UHGV virus genome: UHGV-0107510
Source of the DNA: a virus
DNA length: 12,257 nucleotides
Reading direction: 5' to 3' (one strand)
Shown here: in pieces, positions 1 through 12,257 of the stretch
How positions within the stretch are numbered: position 1 is the first letter of the stretch
Layout: each line of letters starts with the position of its first letter
Notes under the pieces: generated by a model
What the model saw: only the letters and a program-made list of their open reading frames with translations
Told to the model about the DNA's origin: nothing
Databases searched by the model: none
Translations under genes and position numbers: made by a program

Positions 1-612
1 TTTCTGGCTGGTGAAGGTGAATCCGGGGTAACCGAAGAGCAGCCAGCACAGTCTGAAGTACCGGATGTGCTGACCGGGGAGGTCGAACAAAAAGTTACCG
101 CGGACATGATGATTGAGTTTATCTGTCAGGATGGGGCTAAAACGTGTGAGGAACTGGCGGATAAGTTCGGTGTTAGCATTCGCAAGGTTGCTTCCACGTT
201 GGCGGTCGTAACAGCAACGGGGCGCCTGGCACGCGTAAATCAGAACGGTAAATTTCGTTACTGCATACCGGGCGCTGATTTACCGGCAGAGCCGGAAGCT
301 GCATCCGTAGCGGAAACCGATGGTAAAGCCTTTCCTCAGCCAGCAGGTGTTGCGTTACCAGTCCGGGAAGCTGCAACACAGGAAGAAATAAAAACGGAAA
401 GTGTGGCGGTCACAGTGCAGTCACAGCCGTCGTTCACCAGAAAGCATCCGGATGGGCTGATTTTACCATCGCTGCATGTGGCTAACCGCGAGCTGCGCCG
501 GGCAAAAGGTCAGGTTCAGAAGTGGGAGCGAGTCTGCGCCGCGCTGCGGGAGCTGAACAAGTGCCGGGATATTCTCCGGGATATTACCGCCACCAGAGAA
601 CAGCAGCGGTGA
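1..612 (+). CDS. Hypothetical prophage early-region protein, 5' partial (frame is open to the window edge; the listed GTG at 67 is probably internal)
   Basis: Frame 1 has no stop from position 1 to TGA at 610-612. Product unknown; possibly one of the DUF-type proteins common in this region of lambdoid prophages, but I cannot assign a family from sequence alone. Confidence 0.55.
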   Translation, partial: FLAGEGESGVTEEQPAQSEVPDVLTGEVEQKVTADMMIEFICQDGAKTCEELADKFGVSIRKVASTLAVVTATGRLARVNQNGKFRYCIPGADLPAEPEAASVAETDGKAFPQPAGVALPVREAATQEEIKTESVAVTVQSQPSFTRKHPDGLILPSLHVANRELRRAKGQVQKWERVCAALRELNKCRDILRDITATREQQR

Positions 613-671
613 GTGGGTGGAAGACGTGGTGTCGGGCTGAAATTCTGATACTCCGGCTGTGCGCGGGAACG

Positions 672-857
672 ATGACTGTCGAAAGTATCGGCAGTCTGAT
701 TGGTCGTAGCGAGGCAGCGGTCAGAGCGAAAGCCCGGGATAAGGGAATAAGCCTGATGCTGCAGGGTGATTTTCGCCTGTCAGCCAAATTACCGTATAAA
801 GCGATGGACTGCCTGAAGCGAAACGGACTGATTGGCGCTGAGGATAGTTTACGATGA
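672..857 (+). CDS. Small hypothetical protein (61 aa) with a helix-turn-helix-like segment
   Basis: ATG at 672 is the first plausible start after the upstream gene's stop; weak GGGA Shine-Dalgarno 4-5 nt upstream. The segment ESIGSLIGRSEAAVRAKARDKGISL resembles a sigma-r4/LuxR-type HTH. The ATG at 522 would overlap the upstream gene by 90 nt in another frame. Confidence 0.4.
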   Translation: MTVESIGSLIGRSEAAVRAKARDKGISLMLQGDFRLSAKLPYKAMDCLKRNGLIGAEDSLR

Positions 858-937
858 CCTGGCCTGAGGCATTCGTAACGGTAGGAGTTGCAATGGCGGT
901 AGCGCTGGTGGTTTATTCGATTTGCCGCTGGGGTTGA
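854..937 (+). CDS. 27-aa hydrophobic peptide (MTWPEAFVTVGVAMAVALVVYSICRWG), possibly translationally coupled
   Basis: Its ATG overlaps the stop of the preceding ORF in an ATGA arrangement (854-857). One hydrophobic helix-length segment. Too short to judge by composition; included only because of the coupling geometry. Confidence 0.2.
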   Translation: MTWPEAFVTVGVAMAVALVVYSICRWG

Positions 938-1021
938 CGTAATTACTAATCCGGGGCTATATTCACCGCACGGTCGAGTTGACCGTCGGGATTGAGACCC
1001 CGGATAGAAACCGCGACAGAC

Positions 1022-1044
1022 ACACGCCGCGAGCGTGTTTTTTA
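1022..1044 (+). terminator. Rho-independent terminator candidate
   Basis: Stem ACACGC (1022-1027) / GCGTGT (1033-1038) with a 5-nt loop, followed by TTTTTT (1039-1044). Confidence 0.5.
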
Positions 1045-1204
1045 TTGTCGTATGCACGCGCACATCTGAATTATGGTGGGGCGTATAGGGGAGCTGAAAA
1101 GCTCGCCGGTTGGTTTCCCGGTAGTCTCAACCCTGTACGTCTCACCACCCGACGATTGAGACCTGACGGTGGTGATAGTTTAGAAACCACCCTAGGGTGT
1201 CGTT

Positions 1205-1753
1205 ATGACTACTCAAATCTCTGTTGAAACTCTTGTTGCTATTACTTACAACCAAATCCCTGTAATTACCACTGAGTTGTTGGCGCATCTTTATGGTGCA
1301 GACGTTAAGAATATTCAAAACAACTTTGCAAGGAATGTAGGGCGCTTTCAGATTGGAAAACACTTTTTTAAGATCGAAGGTGAAGAGTTACGTGAATTGA
1401 AGCACAGACCATCTTTAAGTGGGTCTGTGAAAATCGCCCGTAACGTTCGTTCCCTCATCCTCTGGACAGAACGCGGAGCAGCCCGTCATGCAAAAATGCT
1501 CGAAACCGATCAGGCGTGGGAAGTATTCGAAAAACTCGAAGACAGTTACTTCAACCAGTACGAGAAAGAGCGGACTATGGGAAAAATGAATATCGATTTT
1601 CACCTGGCGATCCGTGACGATAAAACCGCCTTCATCCGAAGTTATGCGCCTGGCGAGCTGGTGACGGTTGAAGAAGCCCTGGCTTTGCTTAAATCGCGCG
1701 GATGGCTGGTAATGCCACGAGATGAACTGGCCGGAAAATTAATGGAGCTTTAA
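1205..1753 (+). CDS. Phage antirepressor-like protein (ORF6N-type N-terminal domain)
   Basis: 182-aa ORF with AGGGTG Shine-Dalgarno 5 nt upstream of the ATG. The N-terminal 80 aa (…NQIPVITTELLAHLYGADVKNIQNNFARNVGRFQIGKHFFKIEGEELRELK…) matches what I recall of the ORF6N/antirepressor family. Confidence 0.75.
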   Translation: MTTQISVETLVAITYNQIPVITTELLAHLYGADVKNIQNNFARNVGRFQIGKHFFKIEGEELRELKHRPSLSGSVKIARNVRSLILWTERGAARHAKMLETDQAWEVFEKLEDSYFNQYEKERTMGKMNIDFHLAIRDDKTAFIRSYAPGELVTVEEALALLKSRGWLVMPRDELAGKLMEL

Positions 1754-1779
1754 CCGATTGAGTTAACCTTGATATGGGA

Positions 1780-1799
1780 ATTCCCATATCGGGAGAACA
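1780..1799. repeat. Perfect 20-bp palindrome GATATGGGAATTCCCATATC
   Basis: The sequence is its own reverse complement, centred on GAATTC, 27 bp after the antirepressor stop. Not followed by a T-run on either strand, so it is more likely a dimeric-protein binding site or a hairpin than an intrinsic terminator. Confidence 0.5.
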
Positions 1800-2024
1800 T
1801 TACCATCGGGGATAAAATGATTTGCGGGGAAAGAAGAGTTAAGTAGAATTGCTGCGGGTGCTTGAGGCTGTCTGCCTCGGGCATGCCGCCGTAAGGCAGA
1901 CAGAGAAAAGCCCCAGTTAACATTACGCGTCTTGCAGGACGCTTAACATTAATCTGAGGCCAATTTCATGCTTTGCACATGTAGGTTAGCCTCTTACGTG
2001 CCGAAAGGCAAGGAGAAGCAGGCT

Positions 2025-2180
2025 ATGAAGCAGCAAAAGGCGATGTTAATCGCCCTGATTGTCATCTGTTTAACCGTCATAGTGACGGCACTGGTAACGA
2101 GGAAAGACCTCTGCGAGGTACGAATCCGAACCGGCCAGACGGAGGTCGCTGTCTTCACAGCTTACGAACCTGAGGAGTAA
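2025..2180 (+). CDS. hok: Hok/Gef family type I toxin (small membrane-damaging peptide)
   Basis: 51-aa product MKQQKAMLIALIVICLTVIVTALVTRKDLCEVRIRTGQTEVAVFTAYEPEE carries the Hok/Gef signature (N-terminal TM helix, LCEVRIRTGQTEVA motif). AGGAGA Shine-Dalgarno at 2011-2016, 8 nt before the ATG. An in-frame upstream ATG at 1968 would add 19 residues. Confidence 0.9.
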   Translation: MKQQKAMLIALIVICLTVIVTALVTRKDLCEVRIRTGQTEVAVFTAYEPEE

Positions 2181-2239
2181 GAGACTTGGCGAGGGAGAAA
2201 TCCCTCGCCACCTCTGATGTGTCAGGCATCCTCAACGCA

Positions 2240-2270
2240 CCCGCACTTAACCTGCTTCGGCGGGTTTTGT
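2240..2270 (+). terminator. Terminator candidate at the end of the hok transcript
   Basis: GC stem CCCGC (2240-2244) / GCGGG (2260-2264) followed by TTTTGTTGTATT. A stable 9-bp hairpin GGCGAGGGA-GAAA-TCCCTCGCC lies just upstream (2188-2209), consistent with the structured 3' end typical of hok mRNAs. Confidence 0.4.
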
Positions 2271-2282
2271 TGTATTAGAATA

Positions 2283-2600
2283 TCAGGATATTACCTGGAT
2301 CCCGTTTTTCTCGACAACTGAAAGAAGCCGAAGAGCTGCACCTCCCGGGCGTTTCACTCCTCGTTCCCAGTCTGATATCAGGTTTTTACTGACGTTGAGG
2401 TATCTGGCAAAAACAGGTTGAGACAGATGCTCTCGTTCTCGCAGTGCACGGATCCTTTCTGGAGACATTACCGGCGCAGGCTGAAGACAAGTTTCATCGA
2501 ATTCGCGCATAGTTTGTTTTGTGATTGCACCGATATCATGGAGTGACTCCATCATTTCATGTACAGATGCAAGTGCATCACTGCGGTAATTTTTACTCAT
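2283..2600 (-). CDS. HTH-domain antitoxin (HigA-2-like, XRE-type C-terminal HTH)
   Basis: 105-aa ORF; the C-terminal segment LSQPVFARYLNVSKNLISDWERGVKRPGGAALRLL is an XRE-family HTH. Its ATG (2598-2600) overlaps the last codons of the upstream toxin frame by 8 nt, the usual toxin-first TA operon geometry. Confidence 0.8.
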   Translation of the reverse strand: MSKNYRSDALASVHEMMESLHDIGAITKQTMREFDETCLQPAPVMSPERIRALREREHLSQPVFARYLNVSKNLISDWERGVKRPGGAALRLLSVVEKNGIQVIS

Positions 2601-2965
2601 TGGGTACCTCCGTGAACTGGCCTTGTTGAATCAATTGTGCCAGCTGTTCATCAGTAAGATTGAGGACATGGGGAGCGGCTTTTCGAAAAGCATTTTCCTC
2701 TATAGCAGTGATATTCTCTCGTTCATTCTTTGCGTATGCGTAGATGAAAAAGGCTTTTTCTGCAACGCGGTAAAAAATTATTGTCCGGTAACCGCCTGAT
2801 TTTCCGCCACCACTTCGGGCTAATCTTTGTTTAATGACACCACTACCCAAATTTGCGGATATGATCCCCCTTATCGGCCTGCTCCACGATTTTGCGCAGC
2901 GATTTATCGGAAATCCGATGTTTTCGGGCGAAACGTTCAAACCAGGCGTTTTTGAAAATTCGCAT
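2593..2965 (-). pseudogene. HigB-2-like (RelE/ParE superfamily) toxin, apparently frameshifted in a C5/G5 homopolymer
   Basis: The ATG at 2965 with a GAGG Shine-Dalgarno gives MRIFKNAWFERFARKHRISDKSLRKIVEQADKG, then runs into a stop at 2843-2845. The rest of the toxin (IISANLGSGVIKQRLARSGGGKSGGYRTIIFYRVAEKAFFIYAYAKNERENIT…) is in the +1 frame down to the stop at 2593-2595. Removing one C from the run at 2866-2870 joins the two into a ~116-aa ORF. The C-terminal block resembles V. cholerae HigB-2 as I recall it. Confidence 0.65.
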
Positions 2966-2988
2966 ACCTGCCTCTGCATTTTATATAA

Positions 2989-3009
2989 CACATAGTGTTA
3001 CACTATGTG
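2989..3009. promoter_or_regulatory. Operator-like inverted repeat in the promoter of the toxin-antitoxin operon
   Basis: CACATAGTGT-t-ACACTATGTG: 10-bp arms with a 1-nt spacer, just upstream of the minus-strand toxin start. A TATAAA -10-like element (minus strand, about 2980-2985) sits between it and the start. Typical autoregulatory layout for type II TA operons. Confidence 0.55.
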
Positions 3010-3188
3010 GACTATGGAGGCAATCTTTATTTGAGAATGCTTGCTGATTTATCCGTGTTCAAAAAACAGACGTAATTCAGATTGTATAAACGGCAGACAG
3101 AAAAAGTCATTGTTCTTGCGCATAAAATCCTCAGATTTACTGAGTGAAATGCGTCTCTTTTCATGGTTATAGTCCGAGAGAAGCGATA

Positions 3189-3416
3189 ATGCATTTCATT
3201 TCCTTTACGTCAGGAGGTGTTGTGAAAATCCCAGCCAGTTTGATCCCGGGGTTTTATGAGAGCACGCGCCCGGTTGTTGTTTACAGAAACAGTGATGGTT
3301 CTTTTCAATGTGGTTTTGTTATGCGAAGTAATGAGGTTGTTGTAAGCCTTTCTCTTCTTTCTGAGGTAAGAGAGTTGGCAGGACTACCTGTTGATGATAT
3401 TCAGAAGCAGCTATAA
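3189..3416 (+). CDS. Hypothetical small protein (75 aa from ATG 3189; alternative starts ATG 3144 or GTG 3222)
   Basis: ORF on the same strand as downstream genes. GAGAGA purine tract about 8 nt before ATG 3189; the AGGAGG at 3213-3218 is only 3 nt from GTG 3222. No family recognised. Confidence 0.4.
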   Translation: MHFISFTSGGVVKIPASLIPGFYESTRPVVVYRNSDGSFQCGFVMRSNEVVVSLSLLSEVRELAGLPVDDIQKQL

Positions 3417-3469
3417 AATCAGGCTGACTTGAACCGTCGCTGAGAAACACCGTGCCACCGGAGATCCCG

Positions 3470-3739
3470 ATGGCGCACGATAGCAGATTGCACAATTCTG
3501 CCGCCCTTGCCAGTAGGCAAGGGCGGTGTTCGCACGTATTTAAAACCGACTGGTTCCAGCATCCCCCATGCACTGAAGAACAGGCCGAATGGCTGATCCA
3601 GTGTTACCGCAGGTGCGGATATGAGTTTGAGAAAGCCCTCAGCTTCGATCGTCGTCACTGGATAATCTCCGTCAGGCTCCCTTATTCCGAACGCCCGCCG
3701 CGTCCGTCCCGCACATATCAGCAACGCATCTGGAGGTAA
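3470..3739 (+). CDS. Hypothetical protein (89 aa; alternative ATG 3452), translationally coupled to the DUF968 gene
   Basis: Stop TAA at 3737-3739 lies within or adjacent to the GGAGGT Shine-Dalgarno of the next gene and is 1 nt before its GTG start. Same position as the small gene upstream of ydfU in E. coli Qin, by recollection of gene order only. Confidence 0.45.
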   Translation: MAHDSRLHNSAALASRQGRCSHVFKTDWFQHPPCTEEQAEWLIQCYRRCGYEFEKALSFDRRHWIISVRLPYSERPPRPSRTYQQRIWR

Positions 3740-3740
3740 C

Positions 3741-4790
3741 GTGCGGGTATTACTTCGACCTGTTCTGGTACCGGAACTCGGTCTGGTTATCGTTAAGCCA
3801 GACCGTGAATCAATGTCAGTATTCCATAACGGCAGAATATTGGTGGAACCGGAACCCAAAAACATGCGCAGTCTTCCGTCCGGCGTCGTTGCAGCCGTTA
3901 GCCAGCCGTTGGCTGAGGATAAAACATTACTACCATTTTTCAGCGATGAGCGGGTTATTCGTGCAGCAGGTGGTGCAGGTGCACTGTCTGACTGGTTATT
4001 ACGTCACGTGAAATCCTGCCAGTGGCCACACGGCGATTATCATCACAGCGAAACAGTCATTCACCGTTACGGTACCGGCGCGATGGTGTTGTGCTGGCAC
4101 TGTGACAACCAGCTGCGCAACCAGACATCAGAATCACTCGATCAACTTGCTCAGCAGAATCTGGTTGCCTGGATGATTGACGTCATCCGTCACGCAATAA
4201 GCGGTACGCAGGAGAGGGAGTTATCGCTGGCCGAATTATCCTGGTGGGCGGCCTGCAATCAGGTGGTGGATGCACTACCTGAGGCAGTAGCGCGTCGTTC
4301 GCTGGGATTACCGGTGGAAAAAATCCGCTCCGTATACCGTGAGAGTGACATCGTACCGGGAGAACAGACAGCCATCAGCATACTGAAGCAGCGCACAAAA
4401 AATATTGCGCTGCCACTTCACGTCCACCAGCAACAAAATCCACCACAGAAAAAAACGGTTGTCAGTATCGCCGTTGATCCGGAGTCTCCTGAATCGTTCA
4501 TGAGGCGGCCTAAACGTCGCCGTTGGGTTAATGAGAAATACACGCGCTGGGTAAAGACACAGCCGTGTGCGTGTTGTGGTAAGCCAGCTGACGATCCGCA
4601 TCACCTGATTGGTCATGGTCAGGGGGGAGTGGGAACAAAGGCCCACGACATTTTCACGCTACCGTTGTGCCGGGAGCACCACAACGAACTTCATGCAGAC
4701 CCGCTGAAGTTTGAGAAAAAGTACGGCTCTCAGATTGAGTTAATTTTTCGTTTTCTTGATCACGCCTTTGCGACTGGCGTGCTCGGGTAA
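3741..4790 (+). CDS. DUF968-family protein (YdfU-like) with a C-terminal Cys/His HNH-like motif
   Basis: 349-aa ORF with GTG start and strong GGAGGT Shine-Dalgarno (3732-3737). Length and position (just upstream of rusA/Q) match YdfU-type prophage proteins. The C-terminus carries CACCGKP…HHLIGHGQGG…CREHHNELH. Confidence 0.8.
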   Translation: MRVLLRPVLVPELGLVIVKPDRESMSVFHNGRILVEPEPKNMRSLPSGVVAAVSQPLAEDKTLLPFFSDERVIRAAGGAGALSDWLLRHVKSCQWPHGDYHHSETVIHRYGTGAMVLCWHCDNQLRNQTSESLDQLAQQNLVAWMIDVIRHAISGTQERELSLAELSWWAACNQVVDALPEAVARRSLGLPVEKIRSVYRESDIVPGEQTAISILKQRTKNIALPLHVHQQQNPPQKKTVVSIAVDPESPESFMRRPKRRRWVNEKYTRWVKTQPCACCGKPADDPHHLIGHGQGGVGTKAHDIFTLPLCREHHNELHADPLKFEKKYGSQIELIFRFLDHAFATGVLG

Positions 4791-4802
4791 AAGAGGTGAC
4801 TG

Positions 4803-5162
4803 ATGCTCATAGATTTGGTTTTACCTTACCCGCCGACGGTGAACACTTACTGGCGACGCCGTGGCAGCACATATTTTATCTCGGAGGAGGGAAAGCGTTA
4901 TCGCCGGGCTGTGGCGCTTATTGTTCGCCAGCAGCGGCTGAAATTAAGCCTGTCCGGAAGGCTGGCGATAAAGGTGATTGCAGAGCCACCGGATAAGCGT
5001 CGTCGCGACCTGGACAACATTCTGAAAGCGCCGCTGGATGCGCTGACGCATGCGGGAGTGCTCATTGATGACGAGCAGTTTGATGAAATCAATATTGTAC
5101 GTGGTCAGCCGGTATCTGGTGGACGGCTGGGTGTGAAGATTTACAAAATTGAGAGTGAGTGA
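4803..5162 (+). CDS. rusA: Holliday junction resolvase RusA
   Basis: 119-aa product; the PPTVNTYW N-terminus and the central RRRDLDN…DAL…DD motif match the RusA family. GAGGTG Shine-Dalgarno upstream; canonical nin-region position before Q. Confidence 0.9.
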   Translation: MLIDLVLPYPPTVNTYWRRRGSTYFISEEGKRYRRAVALIVRQQRLKLSLSGRLAIKVIAEPPDKRRRDLDNILKAPLDALTHAGVLIDDEQFDEINIVRGQPVSGGRLGVKIYKIESE

Positions 5163-5170
5163 GCGTAAAT

Positions 5171-5731
5171 ATGATATATCCGGAAATTACAGGCAAAAGC
5201 GGCGAACATTTACGCCTGAACACGCTGGAAGCAGTCTGGATCCAGGGGAAATTACGGATGTGGGGGCGGTGGTCGTATATAGGCGGGGGTAAATCCGGAA
5301 ATATGTTTAACCGGTTACTGGTTTCGAAGAAGCTGACGAAAACAGCAGTTAAGGAGGTTTTACGCAGAATGAAGAAATCCGGGCTGGATAAACCGGAACT
5401 TGAGGCATTTTTTCGGGATATGACCAGAGGGAAGCAGAAGAGCTGGTTGTCACATTGTACAGACACAGAGGCGTTGATTATTGATCGCGTTATCAGTGAG
5501 GTGCTTGGGGAATATCCCGGGCTAATCAATATTCTCCGGCAAAGGTACGAAGGACGAGGAATGAGCAAACTGAAAATGGCCGAAAGGTTAAATGCAGATC
5601 ATCCTGAGTGGACGTTGGTTACGTGCAGACGCCGAATTGATCAATGGTTGGGGATATCTGAATTTATGTTACATGCCCCCATGCGTATGGCTTTTGTTAC
5701 AGAGAAAAAAATGTTGCAAACTGATCAATAA
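5171..5731 (+). CDS. Q: Late-gene antitermination protein Q family (alternative GTG start at 5159 overlapping the rusA stop)
   Basis: Sits immediately after rusA and immediately before a short promoter-terminator unit, as Q genes do. Contains a WGRWSY…GGG segment resembling the WGxW region of Q-family antiterminators such as DLP12 QuuD. Family call is part positional, part motif. Confidence 0.65.
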   Translation: MIYPEITGKSGEHLRLNTLEAVWIQGKLRMWGRWSYIGGGKSGNMFNRLLVSKKLTKTAVKEVLRRMKKSGLDKPELEAFFRDMTRGKQKSWLSHCTDTEALIIDRVISEVLGEYPGLINILRQRYEGRGMSKLKMAERLNADHPEWTLVTCRRRIDQWLGISEFMLHAPMRMAFVTEKKMLQTDQ

Positions 5732-5742
5732 ACTGCTTCAAT
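5714..5742 (+). promoter_or_regulatory. Candidate late promoter pR' (-35 TTGCAA 5714-5719, -10 TTCAAT 5737-5742, 17-bp spacer)
   Basis: Overlaps the 3' end of Q and lies about 60-90 bp upstream of an intrinsic terminator, the expected pR'-qut-tR' layout. Both hexamers are imperfect; TATAAG at 5746-5751 is an alternative -10. Confidence 0.3.
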
Positions 5743-5804
5743 CCGTATAAGCTTCGCAAGGCTGTATCGCGAGGCGAAACGCAAGTTTTTTCGCACAAGG
5801 AAGC

Positions 5805-5824
5805 CACCGGAAGGTGGTTTTTTG
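5805..5824 (+). terminator. tR'-like intrinsic terminator downstream of Q
   Basis: Stem CCACC (5805-5809) / GGTGG (5814-5818) with a GGAA tetraloop, followed by TTTTTT. Confidence 0.55.
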
Positions 5825-5946
5825 TGTCCGCGATATACAGCAGCGCAATAAATTCGCTGGTGGTTATTAATACCGTTCTTTCAGCTTGCTGGCTTTTTCG
5901 ACAAGAGTTATTGGTGTGTCACGTTAACCGGAAAAGGGAAAAAGAC

Positions 5947-6144
5947 ATGCTGAAACAGCAGGATATGACCGAAACCGCCAGAGTGGTGTTTAATGAATTA
6001 AGCGTCACCGAACCGGCGACAGTCGGGGAGATTGCACAGAATACGTACCTTTCACGCGAACGCTGTCAGTTAATACTGACCCAGCTTGTTATGGCGGGTC
6101 TGGCAGACTATCAGTTCGGTTGTTACAGACGCCTTCAGTCATGA
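5947..6144 (+). CDS. Small hypothetical protein (65 aa), possibly a winged-helix DNA-binding protein
   Basis: ATG at 5947 preceded by a purine-rich tract (GGAAAAGGGAAAAAGAC). Product MLKQQDMTETARVVFNELSVTEPATVGEIAQNTYLSRERCQLILTQLVMAGLADYQFG… has an HTH-like core. Its stop codon is embedded in a terminator hairpin. The listed ATG at 5824 overlaps tR' and is unlikely. Confidence 0.5.
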   Translation: MLKQQDMTETARVVFNELSVTEPATVGEIAQNTYLSRERCQLILTQLVMAGLADYQFGCYRRLQS

Positions 6145-6294: not shown

Positions 6295-7353
6295 ATGCTT
6301 AGTACTGTAAAAATATCCAGTTGTGAGTTAATCAACGCCGACTGCCTGGAATTTATCCGGTCGTTACCCGAAAATTCTGTTGACCTGATAGTCACGGACC
6401 CGCCGTACTTTAAAGTGAAGCCTGAGGGCTGGGATAACCAGTGGAAGGGCGACGATGATTACCTGAAATGGCTGGACCAGTGTCTTGCGCAGTTCTGGCG
6501 GGTGCTGAAACCTGCCGGAAGTCTTTACCTGTTCTGTGGCCATCGCCTGGCGTCTGACATTGAAATCATGATGCGTGAACGCTTCAGTGTGCTGAACCAT
6601 ATTATCTGGGCGAAGCCGTCCGGACGCTGGAACGGGTGCAACAAGGAAAGCCTGAGGGCGTATTTCCCCGCCACAGAGCGCATTCTGTTCGCGGAACATT
6701 ATCAGGGGCCGTATCGCCCGAAAGATGCCGGGTATGAGGCGAAGGGCAGGGCACTGAAACAGCATGTGATGGCTCCGCTGATTGCTTACTTTCGTGATGC
6801 GCGTGCTGCCCTGGGGATAACGGCAAAACAGATTGCTGATGCCACAGGAAAGAAAAACATGGTGTCGCACTGGTTCAGTGCCAGCCAGTGGCAGCTACCG
6901 GACGAAAGCGATTATCTGAAATTACAGGCGCTGTTTGCCCGGGTGGCAGAAGAGAAGCATCAGCGGGGTGAACTGGAAAAGCCCCACCACCAGCTGCTGG
7001 AGACGTATACTTCACTGAACCGGCAGTATGCGGAACTGCAGAGTGAATATAAGCTTCTGCGGCGGTATTTTGGCGTGACGGCGCAGGTGCCGTACACGGA
7101 TGTGTGGACGCATAAACCGGCGCAGTACTATCCCGGGAAACATCCGTGCGAAAAACCGGCAGAAATGCTGCAGCAGATAATCAGTGCGAGCAGTCGTCCG
7201 GGTGACCTGGTTGCAGATTTCTTCATGGGGTCAGGTTCGACAGTCAAAGCAGCGATAGCGCTGGGACGTCGTGCAACTGGCGTTGAGCTGGAGACTGAAC
7301 GTTTTGAGCAGACGGTCAGGGAAGTACAGGATTTAGTCAGTCAGAATGGATGA
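6295..7353 (+). CDS. Orphan DNA methyltransferase, beta-class N6-adenine/N4-cytosine type
   Basis: 352-aa ORF with the catalytic DPPY motif near the N-terminus (IVTDPPYF) and the AdoMet-binding FxGxG motif near the C-terminus (DFFMGSGSTVKAAIALG). That motif order is characteristic of beta-class amino-methyltransferases. No restriction endonuclease gene is adjacent. Confidence 0.85.
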   Translation: MLSTVKISSCELINADCLEFIRSLPENSVDLIVTDPPYFKVKPEGWDNQWKGDDDYLKWLDQCLAQFWRVLKPAGSLYLFCGHRLASDIEIMMRERFSVLNHIIWAKPSGRWNGCNKESLRAYFPATERILFAEHYQGPYRPKDAGYEAKGRALKQHVMAPLIAYFRDARAALGITAKQIADATGKKNMVSHWFSASQWQLPDESDYLKLQALFARVAEEKHQRGELEKPHHQLLETYTSLNRQYAELQSEYKLLRRYFGVTAQVPYTDVWTHKPAQYYPGKHPCEKPAEMLQQIISASSRPGDLVADFFMGSGSTVKAAIALGRRATGVELETERFEQTVREVQDLVSQNG

Positions 7354-7393
7354 TATTGCAGGATTAGTTACGTACCGTTATTATCCTGCGCCC

Positions 7394-7469
7394 GGCCCTT
7401 TAGCTCAGTGGTGAGAGCGAGCGACTCATAATCGCCAGGTCGCTGGTTCAAATCCAGCAAGGGCCACCA
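7394..7469 (+). tRNA. ileZ: tRNA-Ile (anticodon CAU, ileX-like; formally could be tRNA-Met)
   Basis: 76 nt with full cloverleaf: acceptor GGCCCTT/AAGGGCC, anticodon loop CTCATAA (CAT at 7427-7429), T-loop TTCAAAT, encoded CCA. Closely resembles E. coli tRNA-Ile2 (ileX) as I recall it. Gene names follow the ileZ-argN-argO trio described upstream of stx in Stx phages. Confidence 0.85.
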
Positions 7470-7478
7470 TATCACATA

Positions 7479-7555
7479 CCGCCATTAGCTCATCGGGATA
7501 GAGCGCCAGCCTTCGAAGCTGGCTGCGCGGGGTTCGAGTCCTCGATGGCGGTCCA
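7479..7555 (+). tRNA. argN: tRNA-Arg (anticodon UCG)
   Basis: 77 nt: acceptor CCGCCAT/ATGGCGG, D-stem GCTC/GAGC, anticodon stem CCAGC/GCTGG with loop CTTCGAA (TCG at 7513-7515), T-loop TTCGAGT, discriminator T then CCA. Confidence 0.8.
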
Positions 7556-7568
7556 TTATCAGCATCAT

Positions 7569-7645
7569 GCGTTGTTAGCTCAGCCGGACAGAGCAATTGC
7601 CTTCTAAGCAATCGGTCACTGGTTCGAATCCAGTACAACGCGCCA
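7569..7645 (+). tRNA. argO: tRNA-Arg (anticodon UCU, reads AGA/AGG)
   Basis: 77 nt: acceptor GCGTTGT/ACAACGC, D-stem GCTC/GAGC, anticodon stem ATTGC/GCAAT with loop CTTCTAA (TCT at 7603-7605), T-stem ACTGG/CCAGT, T-loop TTCGAAT, discriminator G then CCA. Confidence 0.85.
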
Positions 7646-7659
7646 GACTTATTTTTCCC

Positions 7660-7683
7660 GGCTCGCTTTTGCGGGCCTTTTTT
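7660..7683 (+). terminator. Intrinsic terminator after the tRNA cluster
   Basis: Stem GGCTCGC (7660-7666) / GCGGGCC (7671-7677) with one G:T wobble, TTTT loop, followed by TTTTTT (7678-7683). Confidence 0.55.
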
Positions 7684-7814
7684 GTCTCCGCGCCACGCCC
7701 GGCGCATATCAACCACAGAGCTTTCGGGGGTGAGCTTACGGAGTGGTCAGTGTGACTTTCTCTGTGGGCAGATCGCTCCCGGGCGTTGGCTCACCCACCC
7801 AAAGGAACGTCACG

Positions 7815-8246
7815 ATGTTTGGAATCTTCAAAAAGAAAACCCGCAGAGCGGCTGCGGAAATTAAAAAGTTTGAAAAACGCGATCTGGCACAAGCAGTGAT
7901 TAACGCTGCATACCTGGTGGCTTATGCCGATGGTGAATGTGAGGCTTCCGAGAAAGCGAAGATCGAACAGGTATTACGTAACCAGCCCACCTTGTCCGCG
8001 TTTACGTCAGAAATTAATGCGATTAGCGCAACCATTATCGGTCAGCTGGATACGAACTTTAAAATTGGTCGTCGTGCGGCGTTACGTGAGATCGAGGATG
8101 TGAAACACGATACGCGTGAAGCGGAAGACGTGCTGGATGTGGCGGTGGCCATTGCCGAAGCAGACGGCGAAATAGAGCCGGAAGAGCGCAAGGTGCTGGA
8201 AGAGATTGCCGGTGTTCTGGGCCTTCGTCTGGAGAATCATCTGTGA
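7815..8246 (+). CDS. TerB-family (tellurite resistance TerB-like) protein
   Basis: 143-aa product from ATG 7815, with AAGGAA Shine-Dalgarno at 7802-7807. It has the duplicated acidic TerB signature (…LVAYADGECEASEKAKIEQVL… and …AVAIAEADGEIEPEERKVLEEIAGVLGL…), which aligns by eye with canonical TerB. The listed ATG at 7743 lacks a Shine-Dalgarno and adds a non-conserved extension. Confidence 0.75.
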   Translation: MFGIFKKKTRRAAAEIKKFEKRDLAQAVINAAYLVAYADGECEASEKAKIEQVLRNQPTLSAFTSEINAISATIIGQLDTNFKIGRRAALREIEDVKHDTREAEDVLDVAVAIAEADGEIEPEERKVLEEIAGVLGLRLENHL

Positions 8247-8254
8247 CGGTAAAA

Positions 8255-8407
8255 ATGCGTCTGGCTGTGGTTGCGCTCCTGCTGTTTCTGGTGGTGATGG
8301 TGGACTTCAGCAGCCGGATAATGTCAGTGCTGGCTGACGGTGTGCTGGTGGCGGGTGTGGTGGTTGTTGCTTTCCCGTTGCTGAAAAAGAAAGCATCAGG
8401 CGATTAG
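8255..8407 (+). CDS. 50-aa hydrophobic membrane peptide (two predicted TM segments)
   Basis: MRLAVVALLLFLVVMVDFSSRIMSVLADGVLVAGVVVVAFPLLKKKASGD: two hydrophobic stretches and a KKK-containing C-terminus. Starts 8 nt after the TerB-like stop, suggesting co-transcription. Below the ORF-track length cut-off; found by manual translation. Confidence 0.4.
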   Translation: MRLAVVALLLFLVVMVDFSSRIMSVLADGVLVAGVVVVAFPLLKKKASGD

Positions 8408-8647
8408 CAGGGTATCAGTTACCCGTTGAAATTTTTAAATACCTCACAATTCAGGCGGTTGACTGTTGTCTGGTTTGCGGGGAGTTTGTTAAAAGAAACT
8501 GGCATGGTGAATCCCCCTGTGCGGAGGGGCAATCAGCAACTGGTGTTTTGTCACCGACCCTTATCCTTTCTGTGCGGGTTCAGGTGCTGATACTGAACTC
8601 ACCGGGAGGCACCCGGCACCATGCAATGGCACATAGCGCCACTCTCC

Positions 8648-8674
8648 AGCCCCTCTCCGGAGGGGCTTTCTTGT
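8648..8674 (+). terminator. Intrinsic terminator candidate
   Basis: Perfect 8-bp stem AGCCCCTC / GAGGGGCT with loop TCCG, followed by a T-rich tail TTCTTGT. Confidence 0.5.
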
Positions 8675-8678
8675 GGGC

Positions 8679-8705
8679 AAAAAAAAAGCCCGAGTGGGTT
8701 CGGGC
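8679..8705 (-). terminator. Minus-strand intrinsic terminator
   Basis: On the + strand, A9 (8679-8687) is followed by hairpin GCCCGA-GTGGGT-TCGGGC (8688-8705). Read on the minus strand this is a GC hairpin followed by U9. No T-run follows on the + strand. Confidence 0.5.
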
Positions 8706-8760
8706 AACAGCATGAGATATACATTTTTATAATCGAATGGATTTTAACCAGAATTCATAA

Positions 8761-8787
8761 GGCTGCGCAACTGCGCGGCCTTTTTCG
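8761..8787 (+). terminator. Intrinsic terminator candidate
   Basis: Stem GGCTGCGC / GCGCGGCC (8 bp, one G:T wobble) with loop AACT, followed by TTTTT (8781-8785). Confidence 0.5.
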
Positions 8788-8888
8788 TATTGCGGGCTGT
8801 AGTCTTCCTCCTGCCATTGTCCTGTAACTTCCGGACTTCAGCCCGTTCCCTCATCTGACTCACAACATTATCCCGACCGGGAGGATTC

Positions 8889-10868
8889 ATGACATTTAAA
8901 CACTACGATGTGGTCAGGGCGGCGTCGCCGTCAGACCTTGCGGAGCGACTGACACAAAAACTGAAGGAGGGGTGGCAGCCATTTGGCAGCCCTGTCGCCA
9001 TCACGCCTTATACCCTGATGCAGGCCATTGCGGCGGAAGGTGATGTCACCACACCTGTGGTGGTGAAGCCGTCGGATGGAGAAGGCACAGTTATCAGCAC
9101 CACCAGCGAACCGGAGTATTACTTTGTTGTTGTTCTGGCGGGGCAGTCAAACTCAATGTCTTTTGGTGAAGGGCTGCCGCTGCCGGAGACATATGACCGT
9201 CCGGACCCGCGTATTAAACAGCTGGCGCGTCGCAGTACGGTGACGCCGGGTGGTGCCGCCTGTAAATATAACGACATCATTCCGGCAGACCACTGTCTGC
9301 ATGATGTGCAGGATATGAGTAACCTGAATCATCCTGAAGCGGACTTGTCAAAGGGACAGTACGGTTGTGTGGGGCATGCTCTGCATGTTGCCAAAAAGCT
9401 GCTGCCGTTTATGCCTGCGAATGCGGGTATCCTTCTTGTTCCATGTGGCCGTGGCGATTCGGGATTTACTGCGGGGGCCGAGGGGGCGTTTAACGAAGCG
9501 TCGGGAGCGACCGCAGGCTCGTCCCTGTGGGGGGCGGATAAACCGCTGTATCATGACCTGGTCAGCAGAACCCGTGCGGCCCTGAAGAAAAATCCGAAGA
9601 ACGTGCTGTTATCAGTGATCTGGATGCAGGGAGAAAAAGATGTCAGTTCGGGGAGACATGCAGAACACAATGCGCTTTTCCTTGCCATGGTAAATCAGTT
9701 CCGTACGGAACTGGCAGATGTGGCAGAGCAGTGTACTGGCGGGACAACGGCCAGCGTCCCGTGGATTTGCGGTGATACCACGTACTACTGGAAGGAAAGG
9801 TATGCAGCGCCGTATGAGGCGGTTTACGGTGGGTATAAAGGCAAAGTTGCGCAGAATATTCACTTTGTGCCGTTGATGACGGATGAGCATGGTGTGAATG
9901 TGCCGACAAACGAGCCGTCAGAAGATCCGGACATTATCCCGGCGGGATACTATGGCGCTGCGTCACGCACTGCCAGTAACTGGACGGCAGCCGATCGTAA
10001 AACGCACTTCAGTTCATGGGCGCGAAGAGGCCTTGTTTCAGACCGCCTGGCAGGTGCCATTTTGCAGTACGCCGGGCGGACATTATCGTTCCTTACCGGG
10101 CAGAGCGCACCGCAGTCGGGTGGTACAACTCCTGTCAGTCCGGGGACACCGGATGTTGAGAAACCGCAGGATGGCGGTGTTGCTGGTACTGGTCATGATG
10201 AGGCCGTGAGCAGTACCAGGACGGTGGCTGAATATGATGCGAACAGTGGAAATGGTGCATTGACAGAGCAGCAGTGGGGCGCTTCCGGCGGCAAAGGCAC
10301 TGTGACTGATGACGGTGGACGGAAAGCGCTGCGACTGGAAAAACAGCCCGGTAAACTGACGTCCTGGAAAATGTTCCGTACTGTTGCAGTGGAGGAGGCA
10401 AAAAATCTTCTCAGCAAGGGGGGTGAAATTGCCGTACGGTTCAAAATTCCGGATGGAAGCGAACTGGTGAACGGACAGTTTGTCTTTGGTCTCTACTGGC
10501 CGGTGTCGCAGTGGGCGTCAGGCGCGGCAGCAAACAGTATGCTGGCATCATTCTTCCTTCAGACGGATGCATCAAATCTGAATCTTATGCACCACAAGGG
10601 CACGTCGAATGCACAACTGGGTACATTTGGTGCGTTTGACCATAACTGGCATACGGTTGTTTTCCGCTTTGCGGGAAATAACAGCGAAAGAGTCGTTCCG
10701 GTGATTGATGGTACAGAGCAGACGGCGTTTGACCTTGTGATGTGGACAAATGATGGCTTTACAGCAGATACGCTGACGCTGACAGATATCACGGGGACAA
10801 AAGCGACGTATCCGGTACTGCTTGATACGGTCACTGTCAACGTTAACGAAAGCCGGGCATCAGCATAA
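8889..10868 (+). CDS. nanS-p: NanS-p-like prophage sialate O-acetylesterase (DUF1737 N-terminal domain, esterase core, C-terminal domain after a Gly/Thr/Pro-rich linker)
   Basis: 659-aa ORF with GGGAGG Shine-Dalgarno. The N-terminus MTFKHYDVVRAASPSDLAERLTQKLKEGWQPFGSPV matches the DUF1737 start of the gene found just downstream of stx in Stx phages; the esterase core starts near VVVLAGQSNSMSFG. Confidence 0.85.
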   Translation: MTFKHYDVVRAASPSDLAERLTQKLKEGWQPFGSPVAITPYTLMQAIAAEGDVTTPVVVKPSDGEGTVISTTSEPEYYFVVVLAGQSNSMSFGEGLPLPETYDRPDPRIKQLARRSTVTPGGAACKYNDIIPADHCLHDVQDMSNLNHPEADLSKGQYGCVGHALHVAKKLLPFMPANAGILLVPCGRGDSGFTAGAEGAFNEASGATAGSSLWGADKPLYHDLVSRTRAALKKNPKNVLLSVIWMQGEKDVSSGRHAEHNALFLAMVNQFRTELADVAEQCTGGTTASVPWICGDTTYYWKERYAAPYEAVYGGYKGKVAQNIHFVPLMTDEHGVNVPTNEPSEDPDIIPAGYYGAASRTASNWTAADRKTHFSSWARRGLVSDRLAGAILQYAGRTLSFLTGQSAPQSGGTTPVSPGTPDVEKPQDGGVAGTGHDEAVSSTRTVAEYDANSGNGALTEQQWGASGGKGTVTDDGGRKALRLEKQPGKLTSWKMFRTVAVEEAKNLLSKGGEIAVRFKIPDGSELVNGQFVFGLYWPVSQWASGAAANSMLASFFLQTDASNLNLMHHKGTSNAQLGTFGAFDHNWHTVVFRFAGNNSERVVPVIDGTEQTAFDLVMWTNDGFTADTLTLTDITGTKATYPVLLDTVTVNVNESRASA

Positions 10869-10873
10869 CCGGC

Positions 10874-10911
10874 AAAAAAAAACCGCCAGCGGCAGGAACG
10901 GAAGCTGGCGG
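10874..10911 (-). terminator. Minus-strand intrinsic terminator candidate
   Basis: On the + strand, A9 (10874-10882) is followed by stem CCGCCAGC (10883-10890) / GCTGGCGG (10904-10911) with a 13-nt loop. A hairpin followed by a U-run exists only on the minus strand. Confidence 0.4.
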
Positions 10912-11008
10912 AGGTAATCCCAATGGAGAATGTAAAGAAAAGATGCTTTCGTACATTGGTTTTTTAAATGAAAACAGTTCTCATTGTCAACCATAACGGT
11001 AAGAAACT

Positions 11009-11203
11009 ATGACATTTATTCATCAGGTGATGCTGTACTTCTGTACGGCGGTCTGTGTGCTGTATCTTCTTTCGGGTGGGTACAGGGCAGTGCGCGATTT
11101 CTGGCGCAGGCAGATTGATAAAAGGGCCGCAGAGAAAATCAGCGCCAGTCAGTCAGCCGGAGCAAAAACAGAAGCCCCACTCATTCCGGAACAACCTTCT
11201 TAA
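11009..11203 (+). CDS. Small hypothetical membrane protein (64 aa, one N-terminal TM segment)
   Basis: ORF in the late-gene orientation with a hydrophobic N-terminus (VMLYFCTAVCVLYLL). Weak Shine-Dalgarno. No family recognised. Confidence 0.4.
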   Translation: MTFIHQVMLYFCTAVCVLYLLSGGYRAVRDFWRRQIDKRAAEKISASQSAGAKTEAPLIPEQPS

Positions 11204-11228
11204 TAACCCCTTTCAACGAGAAAATCCT

Positions 11229-11519
11229 ATGTCAGAAATAAAATCGCTGGTCACTGCTGAGGCAGTGAAGGAAGTCCTGCGCTCTGAAGAAGTCAGAAGC
11301 GCACTGAAACAGCAACTTCGGCAGAACCTTGAGGCGCGTCTTGATGCAGAAGTGGATGCCATTCTGGATGAATTGCTTGGTGCACAGCCGGAACCATCCC
11401 CGGAACTGCTTCCGGAACCACAGGCGGAAGATGTCACCACGGAAAATGGTGATATTCAGCCGGAGTCACCGGTGACGGATATGACAGACACACAACCCGA
11501 ACCGGGCACAATGCTGTAA
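11229..11519 (+). CDS. Hypothetical acidic protein (96 aa)
   Basis: ATG at 11229 with a GAGAAAA purine tract upstream. N-terminal predicted helical region (…ALKQQLRQNLEARLDAEVDAILDELLG…) followed by a Pro/Glu-rich acidic tail. Followed by a strong terminator. Confidence 0.5.
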   Translation: MSEIKSLVTAEAVKEVLRSEEVRSALKQQLRQNLEARLDAEVDAILDELLGAQPEPSPELLPEPQAEDVTTENGDIQPESPVTDMTDTQPEPGTML

Positions 11520-11529
11520 CGGCGGGGCA

Positions 11530-11560
11530 GGGCCATCAGTAAAGAGCTGGTGGCCCTTTT
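11530..11560 (+). terminator. Intrinsic terminator upstream of the lysis cassette
   Basis: 10-bp stem GGGCCATCAG / CTGGTGGCCC (one G:T wobble), 7-nt loop, followed by TTTTGTTGTTG. Confidence 0.6.
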
Positions 11561-11594
11561 GTTGTTGTGAGCTTCCGAGTACGGGAGACGGGGT

Positions 11595-11810
11595 ATGTAC
11601 CAGATGGAAAAAATCACAACAGGTGTGTCATACACCACGTCAGCGGTGGGAACGGGCTACTGGTTCCTGCAGTTGCTGGACAGGGTTTCCCCGTCTCAGT
11701 GGGCGGCAATAGGCGTGCTGGGGAGTCTGCTGTTTGGTCTGCTGACATATCTGACGAACCTGTATTTCAAAATTAAAGAAGACCGGCGTAAGGCGGCGCG
11801 GGGAGAGTAG
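11595..11810 (+). CDS. S: Phage holin (Stx-phage S-like)
   Basis: 71-aa product [71 protein letters not shown] has two hydrophobic segments and a charged C-terminal tail. Near-identical, as I recall it, to the 933W-type holin. GGAG Shine-Dalgarno 9 nt upstream. Two Met codons at positions 1 and 4 (possible dual start). Confidence 0.85.
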
Positions 11811-11813
11811 ACG

Positions 11814-12164
11814 ATGAATAAACAATACGAACTGGTTGTTAAAGGGATAAATAATTACCCGGATAAGATTACTGTTACTGTGGCACTGGAAATTGGTGGG
11901 TATCCGTCACTGTTGTTGCCATATGTGGCGATTAGTCTTGACCGTACTGAAGGTGCCACGCTGGAGTTTTACGAAGCTGAGGCGAAAAAGCAGGCGAAGC
12001 AGTTTTTCATGGATGTTGCTGCCGGGTTATGTGAAGGGAACGAACCGTTGCCGGAAAAGCGCCCCGTAATTTTAGAGGCGCAGAATGTATGGATAACCAA
12101 AAAAAGAAATCTACCGGGAAGAATTACTGGTTCTCTGAAGACTCCACCGGAATCACAACCTTAA
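11814..12164 (+). CDS. DUF1327-family protein (YdfR-like), between holin and endolysin
   Basis: 116-aa ORF starting 4 nt after the holin stop, with GGAGAG Shine-Dalgarno. The MNKQYELVVKGINNYPDKITVTVAL N-terminus and the holin-to-endolysin position match YdfR-type proteins of E. coli prophages, by recollection. Confidence 0.65.
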   Translation: MNKQYELVVKGINNYPDKITVTVALEIGGYPSLLLPYVAISLDRTEGATLEFYEAEAKKQAKQFFMDVAAGLCEGNEPLPEKRPVILEAQNVWITKKRNLPGRITGSLKTPPESQP

Positions 12165-12227
12165 TTCACTGACCGGAACAGATAAACCTGTCCGTGGGCA
12201 GAAACCGATAAATCCTGATAAATATCC

Positions 12228-12257
12228 ATGAACGCAAAAATCAGATACGGCCTGTCG
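12228..12257 (+). CDS. R: Endolysin R (lysozyme), 5' fragment truncated by the window end
   Basis: ATG at 12228 gives MNAKIRYGLS, which matches my recollection of the N-terminus of the Stx-phage endolysin. Only 10 codons are visible, so this rests on position and that short match. Confidence 0.45.
   Translation, partial: MNAKIRYGLS

Follow-up and report, generated by a model that had tools for sequence, protein, structure and literature searches.

The closest described systems are the late regulatory regions of Shiga toxin (Stx) 2 phages. In 933W and Sakai Sp5 these share one order, namely the antiterminator gene Q, the tRNA genes ileZ/argN/argO (annotated upstream of stx2A in Sakai Sp5), a cargo slot, the small RNA (sRNA) genes STnc100/AsxR, nanS-p, the holin gene S and the endolysin gene R. 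Tree et al. (2014, PMC4104026) describe convergent sRNA pairs that sit at the moron site, 3' of PR', and nanS-p, which occurs in prophages with and without stx, is co-induced with stx (PMC8065619). Here we describe how UHGV virus genome UHGV-0107510 compares with these systems. This stretch of 12,257 bp, analysed at its full length and called the window below, is an entire metagenome contig (ENA ERZ1309400 NODE_983, ~3.7x coverage) whose sequence ends at both window edges, and an identical contig is on record for two samples. Its close relatives are all Escherichia coli prophages or phages, and the part of an E. coli lambda-like prophage that it represents extends from the nin region into the lysis genes. 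With high confidence we assign the window to a lambdoid phage or prophage of Escherichia, of which it forms the nin-to-lysis segment; the architecture is that of many Stx2 phages, and a TerB/DUF3927 gene pair occupies the cargo slot.

We found that a Stx-phage-type backbone with different cargo at the stx locus is directly supported by alignment. The Stx2 prophage of E. coli ST130 (NZ_CP043478, 2,003,860-2,016,173; from yak faeces) has the gene order of the window from DUF1627 through the holin, and is colinear with and 97.1% identical to window positions 1-7694 in a single alignment. Its proteins left of the slot are 92-100% identical, including the DUF1133 Q-like protein (99.5%), the adenine methyltransferase (97.4%), the ORF6N antirepressor (98.9%) and a helix-turn-helix (HTH) antitoxin (100%). 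In place of window positions 7695-8443 ST130 carries stx2A/stx2B, and homology restarts at 8444. The same two breakpoints, 7694 and 8444, recur against the Stx2a phage Stx2_95 (LC567838), Sakai Sp5 and OkiPb01694, with Stx2_95 showing 96% identity over window positions 5849-7694. ST130, OkiPb01694 and Stx2_95 are similar Stx2 elements, in which the slot is likewise flanked by the tRNA trio, the hairpin and STnc100; whereas the slot of ST130-type phages holds stx2A/stx2B in 1,328 nt, that of the window holds TerB/DUF3927 in 749 nt. Past the slot, ST130 is only ~74-76% identical to the window in the nanS-p region and lacks the DUF1327 open reading frame (ORF) between S and R; it also differs in having an intact RelE toxin.

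The full order of the Stx-phage late-regulatory backbone (Q, tRNAs, slot, nanS-p, S, R) is present, and stxA and stxB, which in a Stx-converting phage lie between Q/pR' and the lysis genes, are absent from the window. Stx2A and Stx2B from a Stx2a phage gave a best tblastn E value of 0.16 against the window, and word-7 blastn of the stx2 interval, which would reveal a remnant, matched only its flanks within the window. A first-pass annotation had proposed such a backbone lacking both toxin subunit genes and had set alignment to Stx phages as the check; the missing toxin genes and the relationship of the backbone both stand, and nothing in the window points to stx at another site of the prophage. 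The 933W-type likeness that it proposed holds for gene order, for the tRNA segment, which is 94.5% identical in Sp5, and more loosely for the late genes, which are only 71-81% identical, but not further: Sp5 has another nin region, a Q933-type Q, stx2AB in the slot, and neither the 65-aa ORF nor the methyltransferase between Q and the tRNAs. To judge from these alignments, the nearest Stx relatives are Stx2 phages with a DUF1133-type Q and a methyltransferase, not 933W/Sp5.

Next, we examined the boundaries and content of the slot. Its left edge is the hairpin directly 3' of argO (~7684-7694) and its right edge lies 5' of STnc100 (~8432-8444). For the survey, 80 IMG/VR loci were fetched via the methyltransferase, which gave at least 600 matches; the 80 best were taken. 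Breakpoints, defined as points inside the window where a BLAST alignment with one of these loci ends, cluster at 7681-7694 in 33 loci and at 8427-8444 in 42 loci. The hairpin after argO is kept even in phage JLK-2012, where the tRNAs are different, and STnc100 follows stx2B at the matching position in Stx2_95, Sp5 and ST130. Both slot anchors were present in 60 of the 80 loci. Upon partitioning these 60 by slot content, in a sample that is biased, draws many loci from isolate genomes and gives proportions for illustration only, the slot was empty in 26, held an ORF of 106-108 aa in 11, TerB in 10 (with DUF3927 detectable or not), Stx2AB in 6 and a DUF3927 remnant of ~200 nt in 5, with a 311-aa methyltransferase and a stretch of ~100 nt in one locus each. 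In a spread sample of complete E. coli genomes the slot was just as varied, with IraM and an IS1 insertion as additional contents. Where the slot is empty, the T-run of the hairpin runs straight into ...AAATGTCTCACAATTCAGG, and because this allele joins the STnc100-side sequence directly, the cassette ends can be placed within a few bases (~7684 and ~8435). The slot is a multi-allelic insertion point, with sister phages carrying stx2AB, another ORF or nothing, and the cassette exchange at the stx locus that had been proposed at first pass is evident from empty, TerB, Stx2AB and other alleles at one site. The alternative ORF of 106-108 aa (MVFSALNIYHSYG...) lies at 10490-10816 of locus L064 and occurs in 10 further IMG/VR loci; a Pfam search assigned the 108-aa form to no family.

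The cargo of the window begins with a TerB-family gene (Pfam 58.7 bits, gathering threshold (GA) 24.4; Klebsiella TerB structure 2JXU, E = 4.5e-8; phrog_632, E = 3e-69), and the GTG start of DUF3927 overlaps the TerB stop (GTGA), which suggests translational coupling of TerB to what would be a small membrane protein. Families for both proteins exist in PHROGs. With respect to the hallmarks of a moron, the pair shows presence/absence polymorphism at a fixed, terminator-flanked site (an empty allele and at least five alternative cargos, between hairpins at 7660 and 8648/8759). Its base composition is not deviant (GC 0.51-0.52 in the TerB region vs 0.51-0.56 nearby), and no sigma-70-like site was found on the plus strand at 7646-7815 by a simple consensus scan, which weak or non-sigma-70 promoters could escape. 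The features of the window are as follows.

1-612, plus strand: DUF1627 gene, its 5' end cut by the contig end (Pfam PF07789, 282.5 bits; DUF1627 annotated in E. coli TB06053 and in ST130).
609-857, plus strand: small truncated DNA-binding-protein ORF (phrog_30109/phrog_323; partial DNA-binding protein in TB06053).
934-1753, plus strand: antirepressor unit, with a promoter-like site (934-963), an IsrK-like RNA (970-1043), C4 antisense RNA (1069-1152) and the ORF6N gene (1205-1753).
1808-2271, plus strand: hok/sok type I toxin-antitoxin module, with sok/hok leader (1856-2030), hokD (2025-2180) and a hairpin (2249-2266).
2283-2600, minus strand: HTH antitoxin gene, intact (Pfam HTH_3/HTH_31; the protein 100% identical in ST130).
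2593-2965, minus strand: RelE (PF06296) / HigB-2-like toxin pseudogene (two Pfam RelE fragments in different frames).
3222-3416 and 3470-3739, plus strand: two small conserved phage ORFs (phrog_31309, phrog_1212).
3741-4790, plus strand: HNH-like protein with DUF968 (Pfam, 256 bits) and a weak HNHc_6 match, located where NinG would be.
4803-5162, plus strand: RusA Holliday-junction resolvase (Pfam RusA, 63.3 bits).
5145-5845, plus strand: Q cassette, made up of the DUF1133 Q-like gene (5171-5731) and 114 nt that include a hairpin (5801-5817) with U6.
5947-6154, plus strand: 65-aa conserved ORF (5947-6144; phrog_331; 98.5% identical in ST130), then a hairpin (6131-6148) with U6.
6295-7353, plus strand: orphan beta-class N6-adenine DNA methyltransferase, apparently M.EcoGII-like (Pfam N6_N4_Mtase).
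7394-7469, 7479-7555 and 7569-7645, plus strand: tRNAs ileZ (CAT), argN (Arg TCG) and argO (Arg TCT) (ARAGORN, Rfam).
7660-7694, plus strand: left slot boundary, a hairpin (7660-7677) with U6 and ~10 conserved nt (-14 kcal/mol, z = -3.6).
7815-8246, plus strand: TerB-family protein (TciA).
8243-8407, plus strand: DUF3927 (TciB-like), a small hydrophobic protein (Pfam 71.7 bits; phrog_1470, TciB-like).
8444-8678, plus strand: right slot boundary and STnc100 sRNA (8473-8678; Rfam STnc100, 144.5 bits).
8683-8735, minus strand: AsxR/AgvB-family anti-sRNA (Rfam AsxR, 63.0 bits).
8759-8787, plus strand: terminator hairpin 5' of nanS-p (-18.8 kcal/mol, z = -3.3).
8889-10868, plus strand: nanS-p (Pfam DUF1737 + SASA + DUF6645).
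11009-11557, plus strand: small ORFs DUF1378 (11009-11203) and DUF826 (11229-11519) (Pfam), then a hairpin (11529-11557; -25.8 kcal/mol) that contains a Chi site (11546).
11595-11810, plus strand: class II holin S of P21 type (Pfam PF04971, 112.8 bits; 100% identical to the ST130 holin).
11814-12164, plus strand: DUF1327 / YdfR-family ORF between holin and endolysin (Pfam DUF1327, 145.9 bits; YdfR family in ABU 83972).
12229-12257, plus strand: start of the endolysin gene R (MNAKIRYGLS...), of which the contig includes 29 nt before it ends (aligns to annotated lysozyme starts).

The nanS-p, holin, endolysin start and tRNA trio named at first pass are thereby present, by Pfam, ARAGORN and sequence alignment, as are hok, the methyltransferase and the TerB-like pair by Pfam. 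That inventory was right in its protein genes and tRNAs but overlooked C4/IsrK, sok, STnc100 and the AsxR-family anti-sRNA, all four of which Rfam finds. The lysis cassette in the window amounts to a complete holin and 29 nt of R, and the contig ends before Rz/Rz1; the endolysin start reads at 12229-12257 as the triplets ATG AAC GCA AAA ATC AGA TAC GGC CTG TCG, and it aligns to the 30 nt with which the lysozyme genes annotated in phage PhiR5_1 and E. coli ABU 83972 begin.

We then considered how the slot might be expressed. The DUF1133 protein scores 342 bits against Pfam DUF1133 and 33.1 bits against Phage_antitermQ (GA 26), is Q-like in PHROG, and matches the Q21 structure 6P18 distantly (E = 5e-5). 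A Q-family gene just 5' of a promoter/terminator region, as in a lambdoid late operon, is recognisable here at the level of sequence only. The hairpin at 5801-5817 is followed by U6 (to 5823) 70 nt past the Q gene and folds with -19.6 kcal/mol (z = -4.3 in comparison with shuffled sequences). The edges of the Q cassette are the two strongest breakpoint clusters, at 5144 (47/80 loci) and 5846 (49/80 loci), and the 114 nt after the Q-like gene (5732-5845) always co-segregate with it, as expected if a cognate pR'/qut and a candidate tR' sit there. These 114 nt form a candidate pR'/qut/tR' unit, from which a short StxS-like terminated transcript could arise.

Terminator-like hairpins were found at 2249, 5801, 6131, 7660, 8648, 8759 and 11529, all of which fold far better than shuffles. 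The first-pass proposal that each accessory insert is bounded by terminators holds for the methyltransferase block and the cargo slot, which are bracketed, but the hairpin scan of the window revealed no plus-strand terminator directly after nanS-p and no canonical terminator after the minus-strand toxin-antitoxin operon. In the proposed scheme, early rightward transcription upon induction would cross the nin region with its accessory units, namely the C4/IsrK-controlled ORF6N antirepressor, hok/sok, the decayed RelE/HigB-2-type pair, DUF968 and RusA, and would yield the DUF1133 Q-like antiterminator. By analogy with lambda and the Stx phages, Q would modify RNA polymerase at its own pR'/qut within the ~114 nt downstream, and the modified polymerase would pass the hairpins at ~5801, 6131, 7660, 8648/8759 and 11529, reading in order the adenine methyltransferase (possibly protecting progeny DNA), the three rare-codon tRNAs, the cargo, nanS-p and S-YdfR-R. 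TerB/DUF3927 would probably be expressed in an Stx2-like manner, mainly via Q-dependent read-through in lytic growth, because no sigma-70 promoter precedes TerB and a terminator lies upstream.

The methyltransferase has the motif order DPPY ... FxGxG in ~350 aa, matches PADLOC MTase_II (E = 3e-161) with no adjacent nuclease, and shares 97% identity with its counterpart in phage 1720a-02. The 1720a-02 enzyme has been called "very similar" to M.EcoGII, a non-specific adenine methylase, and methyltransferases of this type are silent in lysogens and presumably switched on at induction (PMC5778455). Through 1720a-02, the enzyme of the window appears to be M.EcoGII-like as well. In nanS-p, residues 74-394 match the esterase NanS/YjhS 3PT5 (E = 1e-114) and residues 445-653 match NanS-p 6YP6 (E = 2e-49), a GQSN motif is present in the translation, and all three domains of a NanS-p protein are recognised. 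The gene is predicted to encode a prophage 9-O-acetyl-sialate (Neu5,9Ac2) esterase that ends in a lectin-like domain. Its C-terminal half (9500-10540) is far more mosaic than the esterase domain, with 62-77% identity to most relatives and 98-100% to PhiR5_1, and internal breakpoints lie at ~9935, 10081 and 10540. This suggests that the lectin-like part may be exchanged at the domain level.

Regarding the toxin-antitoxin modules, hok/sok is well recognised (HOK_GEF 82.9 bits; Rfam sok 117.3 bits, GA 59), with module edges at 1808 (21 loci) and 2271 (29 loci). The HigB-2-like module of the first-pass annotation proved to comprise a RelE-family toxin and an HTH antitoxin, but the toxin is a frameshifted pseudogene: relative to intact alleles, one base is added to the homopolymer at 2866-2870 (C on the plus strand, G on the coding strand), so that the window lacks the intact toxin beside an HTH antitoxin of a type II system and retains only the antitoxin. 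ST130, FHI_NMBU_10 and JNEC-KY176 have the intact 123-aa gene, and the intact allele is a distant match to Vibrio HigB-2 5JA9 (E = 4e-4). We rejected a low-coverage sequencing error as the source of the frameshift, since TB06053 and OkiPb01694 have the identical split gene, and we regard it as an allele that is common to them.

In the antirepressor unit, Rfam identified isrK (52.4 bits, GA 50) at 970-1043 and C4 (70.5 bits, GA 45) at 1069-1152. The site at 934-963 is the best sigma-70-like match in the window, and the C4 RNA has a weak a1/b1 target match at 957-1006. The ORF6N protein is supported by Pfam ORF6N and by a PHROG anti-repressor match (E = 9e-81). We take the unit (934-1753) to be under P1-immI/Gifsy-type control, and it is found also in the ST130 Stx2 prophage, TB06053 and JLK-2012.

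Next to the slot, STnc100 on the plus strand is convergent with the AsxR/AgvB-family anti-sRNA on the minus strand (8473-8735), in the layout of Sp5 and in the position described by Tree et al. The anti-sRNA scores 63.0 bits for AsxR, exactly the GA of 63, and 43.4 bits for AgvB, below the GA of 56. It displays the traits of the family, being an sRNA of 50-60 nt convergent with STnc100, with a conserved 3' part and a terminator. Its 3' 35 nt are identical to Sakai AsxR, whereas the 5' targeting region differs at several positions, and the 5' seed is identical neither to that of AsxR (which targets FnrS) nor to that of AgvB (which targets GcvB). An identical copy is present in ABU 83972. As judged by family assignment, an "anti-stx2" family sRNA occurs in the window without stx. 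An AgvB-type partner instead is seen in one empty-slot locus (L032).

That the window comes from a decayed, non-inducible cryptic prophage, in which the late-operon logic no longer works, is somewhat unlikely, although it is the alternative that survives best. Decay would be in keeping with the frameshifted toxin, the truncation of the DNA-binding ORF at 609-857 and a DUF1327 ORF that some phages have in a longer form, and many E. coli lambdoid prophages are defective (PMC8065619). However, the Q-like gene, the methyltransferase, the tRNAs, nanS-p and the holin are intact with full-length family matches, and no insertion sequence (IS) elements were found in the window. Additionally, phage Evi has a TerB that is 99.3% identical, PhiR5_1 matches 8341-12149 at 96%, and ABU 83972 has its full-length YdfR annotated in the same 116-aa DUF1327 form.

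Next, we investigated the mosaicism of the window as a segment of one lambdoid phage or prophage. Major breakpoint clusters lie at 1808 (21 loci), 2271 (29), 3467 (32), 5144 (47), 5846 (49), 7683 (33), 8432 (42), 8667 (42), 8888 (24) and 11528 (24). The exchange units are the antirepressor; hok/sok (1808-2271); the toxin-antitoxin pair with a small ORF (2272-3467); DUF968-RusA; the Q cassette (5145-5845); the block of 65-aa ORF, methyltransferase and tRNAs (5846-7683); the slot; STnc100; the anti-sRNA with its terminator; nanS-p; DUF1378/DUF826; the holin; and DUF1327. The lowest G+C is found in the toxin-antitoxin region (2250-3500, 0.42-0.46), and around 609-857 relatives have extra genes (DUF4406, ead/Ea22-like), with breakpoints at ~785-933. 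Overall, the window is TB06053-like at 1-7688 (99.2%), ABU 83972-like at 5846-8675 (97.7%) and PhiR5_1-like at 8341-12149 (96.1%). The methyltransferase block is, going by gene content, dispensable, with window positions 6185-8340 missing from PhiR5_1 and the methyltransferase missing from Sp5. In PhiR5_1 (locus L004), positions 4312-4400 correspond to window positions 8341-8407: the last 67 nt of the DUF3927 gene are kept and the methyltransferase, tRNAs and TerB are gone. Because this end of DUF3927 is retained, PhiR5_1 seems to descend by deletion from an ancestor that carried TerB.

The window contains 8 Chi octamers (GCTGGTGG) vs 0.38 expected, a number that 0 of 200 shuffles reached. They lie at 904, 5856, 6173, 8344 and 11546 on the plus strand and at 4424, 6987 and 9100 on the minus strand, with 4 of the 5 top-strand sites intergenic. 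Both ends of the PhiR5_1 deletion (6184 and 8341) fall within Chi sequences, and the sites at 5856 and 11546 fall within major breakpoint clusters. Three of the five top-strand sites are at most 30 nt from major breakpoints (P ~0.01 vs uniformly random positions), but the association is not significant against an intergenic-only background (P ~0.06-0.07), and we do not claim that breakpoints cluster at Chi. Chi-rich lambdoid phages have been described already (PMC12315714).

Several observations weigh against our reading of the window and its slot. The whole 12 kb is present at high identity in no complete E. coli genome (best 85% coverage at 91%), and the window sets a limit on what is seen of integration state, phage completeness and any stx beyond the contig ends. 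DUF1133 antitermination, the position of pR' and the Q-dependence of TerB are all drawn from homology. PADLOC and NCBIfam provide no functional assignment for TerB/DUF3927; a PADLOC scan of TerB, DUF3927, ORF6N, DUF968, nanS-p, DUF1327 and the small ORFs returned generic methyltransferase/HTH models and weak PDC-S05 matches for ORF6N, and otherwise no defence assignment. Furthermore, P1 tciA and tciB were scored as non-essential by CRISPR interference (CRISPRi).

The ~3.7x coverage, the three-part mosaic and the lack of a complete genome with the whole combination would also fit an assembly chimera of two or three co-resident lambdoid prophages with an unnatural combination of modules, and shared prophage sequences can produce false chimeras (PMC8065619). 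We nonetheless consider a chimera very unlikely: each junction is spanned by a long overlap with a cultured genome or an isolated phage (1,840 nt around 7688 in ABU 83972 and 335 nt at 8341-8675), natural lambdoid mosaicism occurs at exactly these positions across 80 independent loci, and the contig is recorded for two samples. Even in a chimera the methyltransferase-tRNA-TerB-STnc100 block would be real and the identity of the slot unchanged. An artefactual tRNA/TerB junction in particular was rejected, since ABU 83972, a cultured isolate, carries the junction in one block.

Returning to the cargo of this nin-to-lysis segment, TerB of the window and of TB06053 differ by 48 synonymous and 2 non-synonymous substitutions (synonymous rate dS 0.76, non-synonymous rate dN 0.006, dN/dS ~0.01), and DUF3927 is less constrained (dN/dS 0.2-0.35). 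On these rates, TerB is under strong purifying selection across old allelic lineages, which speaks against a recent loss of stx and for a real function. Coverage of 80% or more of window positions 7560-8950 is seen in at least 436 of 5,426 complete E. coli genomes, among them ABU 83972, O25:H4 strains and isolates of dog, river and sink origin, and O157:H7 genomes have the TerB allele in a non-Stx prophage beside their Stx prophages. The TerB of phage Evi, cited above, is from a deposited record. In view of these data, a recent deletion of stx from what used to be a Stx phage is extremely unlikely, for although 97% identity of the backbone to a genuine Stx2 prophage extends as far as the slot and E. 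coli strains that make Shiga toxin (STEC) are known to lose stx, neither stxA nor stxB nor the sequence between them has left a remnant in the window, the slot is filled by an intact and strongly constrained gene pair that occupies the same site in hundreds of genomes, including the non-STEC ABU 83972 and O25:H4, a dS of ~0.7 between TerB alleles indicates that the TerB-bearing form is old, and the expected product of a simple deletion is the empty allele, which is found as a distinct form.

By analogy with the ter operon, the most likely role of TerB/DUF3927 would be a membrane- or envelope-associated stress or exclusion function. A bolder proposal, which we consider clearly unlikely, is that the pair is an alternative Stx-type payload, made by Q read-through only in induced cells and selected strongly for its activity, either protection of the envelope or membrane potential until the holin triggers or exclusion of phages or colicins, with Chi/RecBCD driving the exchange of the slot and of the module borders.

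Lambdoid prophages that have the build of Stx phages but no stx are common, and the flanking sRNA pair and nanS-p are already characterised, so that the window has little weight as a discovery; the first-pass annotation called it a useful natural example, but it is not a special one, the TerB allele being widespread and published. Its practical meaning is that Stx-phage-like late regions from metagenomes, with nanS-p, tRNAs, methyltransferase and AsxR-family sRNA, must not be taken as evidence of stx. In addition, the slot alleles fix the boundaries to a few bases, which could aid assay design or the tracking of toxin-cassette exchange, and the very strong purifying selection on phage TerB points to a putative function that would be cheap to probe.

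Finally, we compared the window with the known carriers of the pair. The stx-negative ABU 83972 (NC_017631, ~1.18-1.20 Mb), with related prophages in O25:H4 and other strains, has window positions 5846-8675 as one 97.7% identical block and shares the S-YdfR-R arrangement, whereas it has an 822-bp "antitermination protein" Q, another nin region and a more divergent nanS-p. In ABU 83972 (locus L008) two tandem STnc100 copies (9913-10118 and 10396-10605) lie between DUF3927 and nanS-p, and the second copy accounts for its length difference of ~480 nt from the window. In JLK-2012 (JQ347801; O55:H7 DEC5E) TerB is 96.5% identical and DUF3927 identical, and the two are annotated as tciA/tciB; they are placed downstream of Q, between a tRNA cluster with the shared hairpin and STnc100/yjhS(nanS-p), but the tRNAs are Asn/Thr/Gly, Q, the nin region and the lysis cassette are different, and there is no methyltransferase at that place. 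The gene names come from tciA-tciB-tciC of phage P1, where a TerB homologue of 41-51% identity is followed by a TciB-like small protein and by a third gene, tciC, in an unrelated phage and genomic context. A tellurite-resistance protein has been reported "in place of stx2d" (PMC9413875), and a 2026 preprint names RusA, TerB and DUF1627 as the prophage setting in which certain sRNAs most often lie. Carriage of TerB/TciA-TciB at the stx locus is an established and frequent arrangement, being annotated in JLK-2012 and mentioned in print, and the window carries this same pair on a backbone of the ST130 type.

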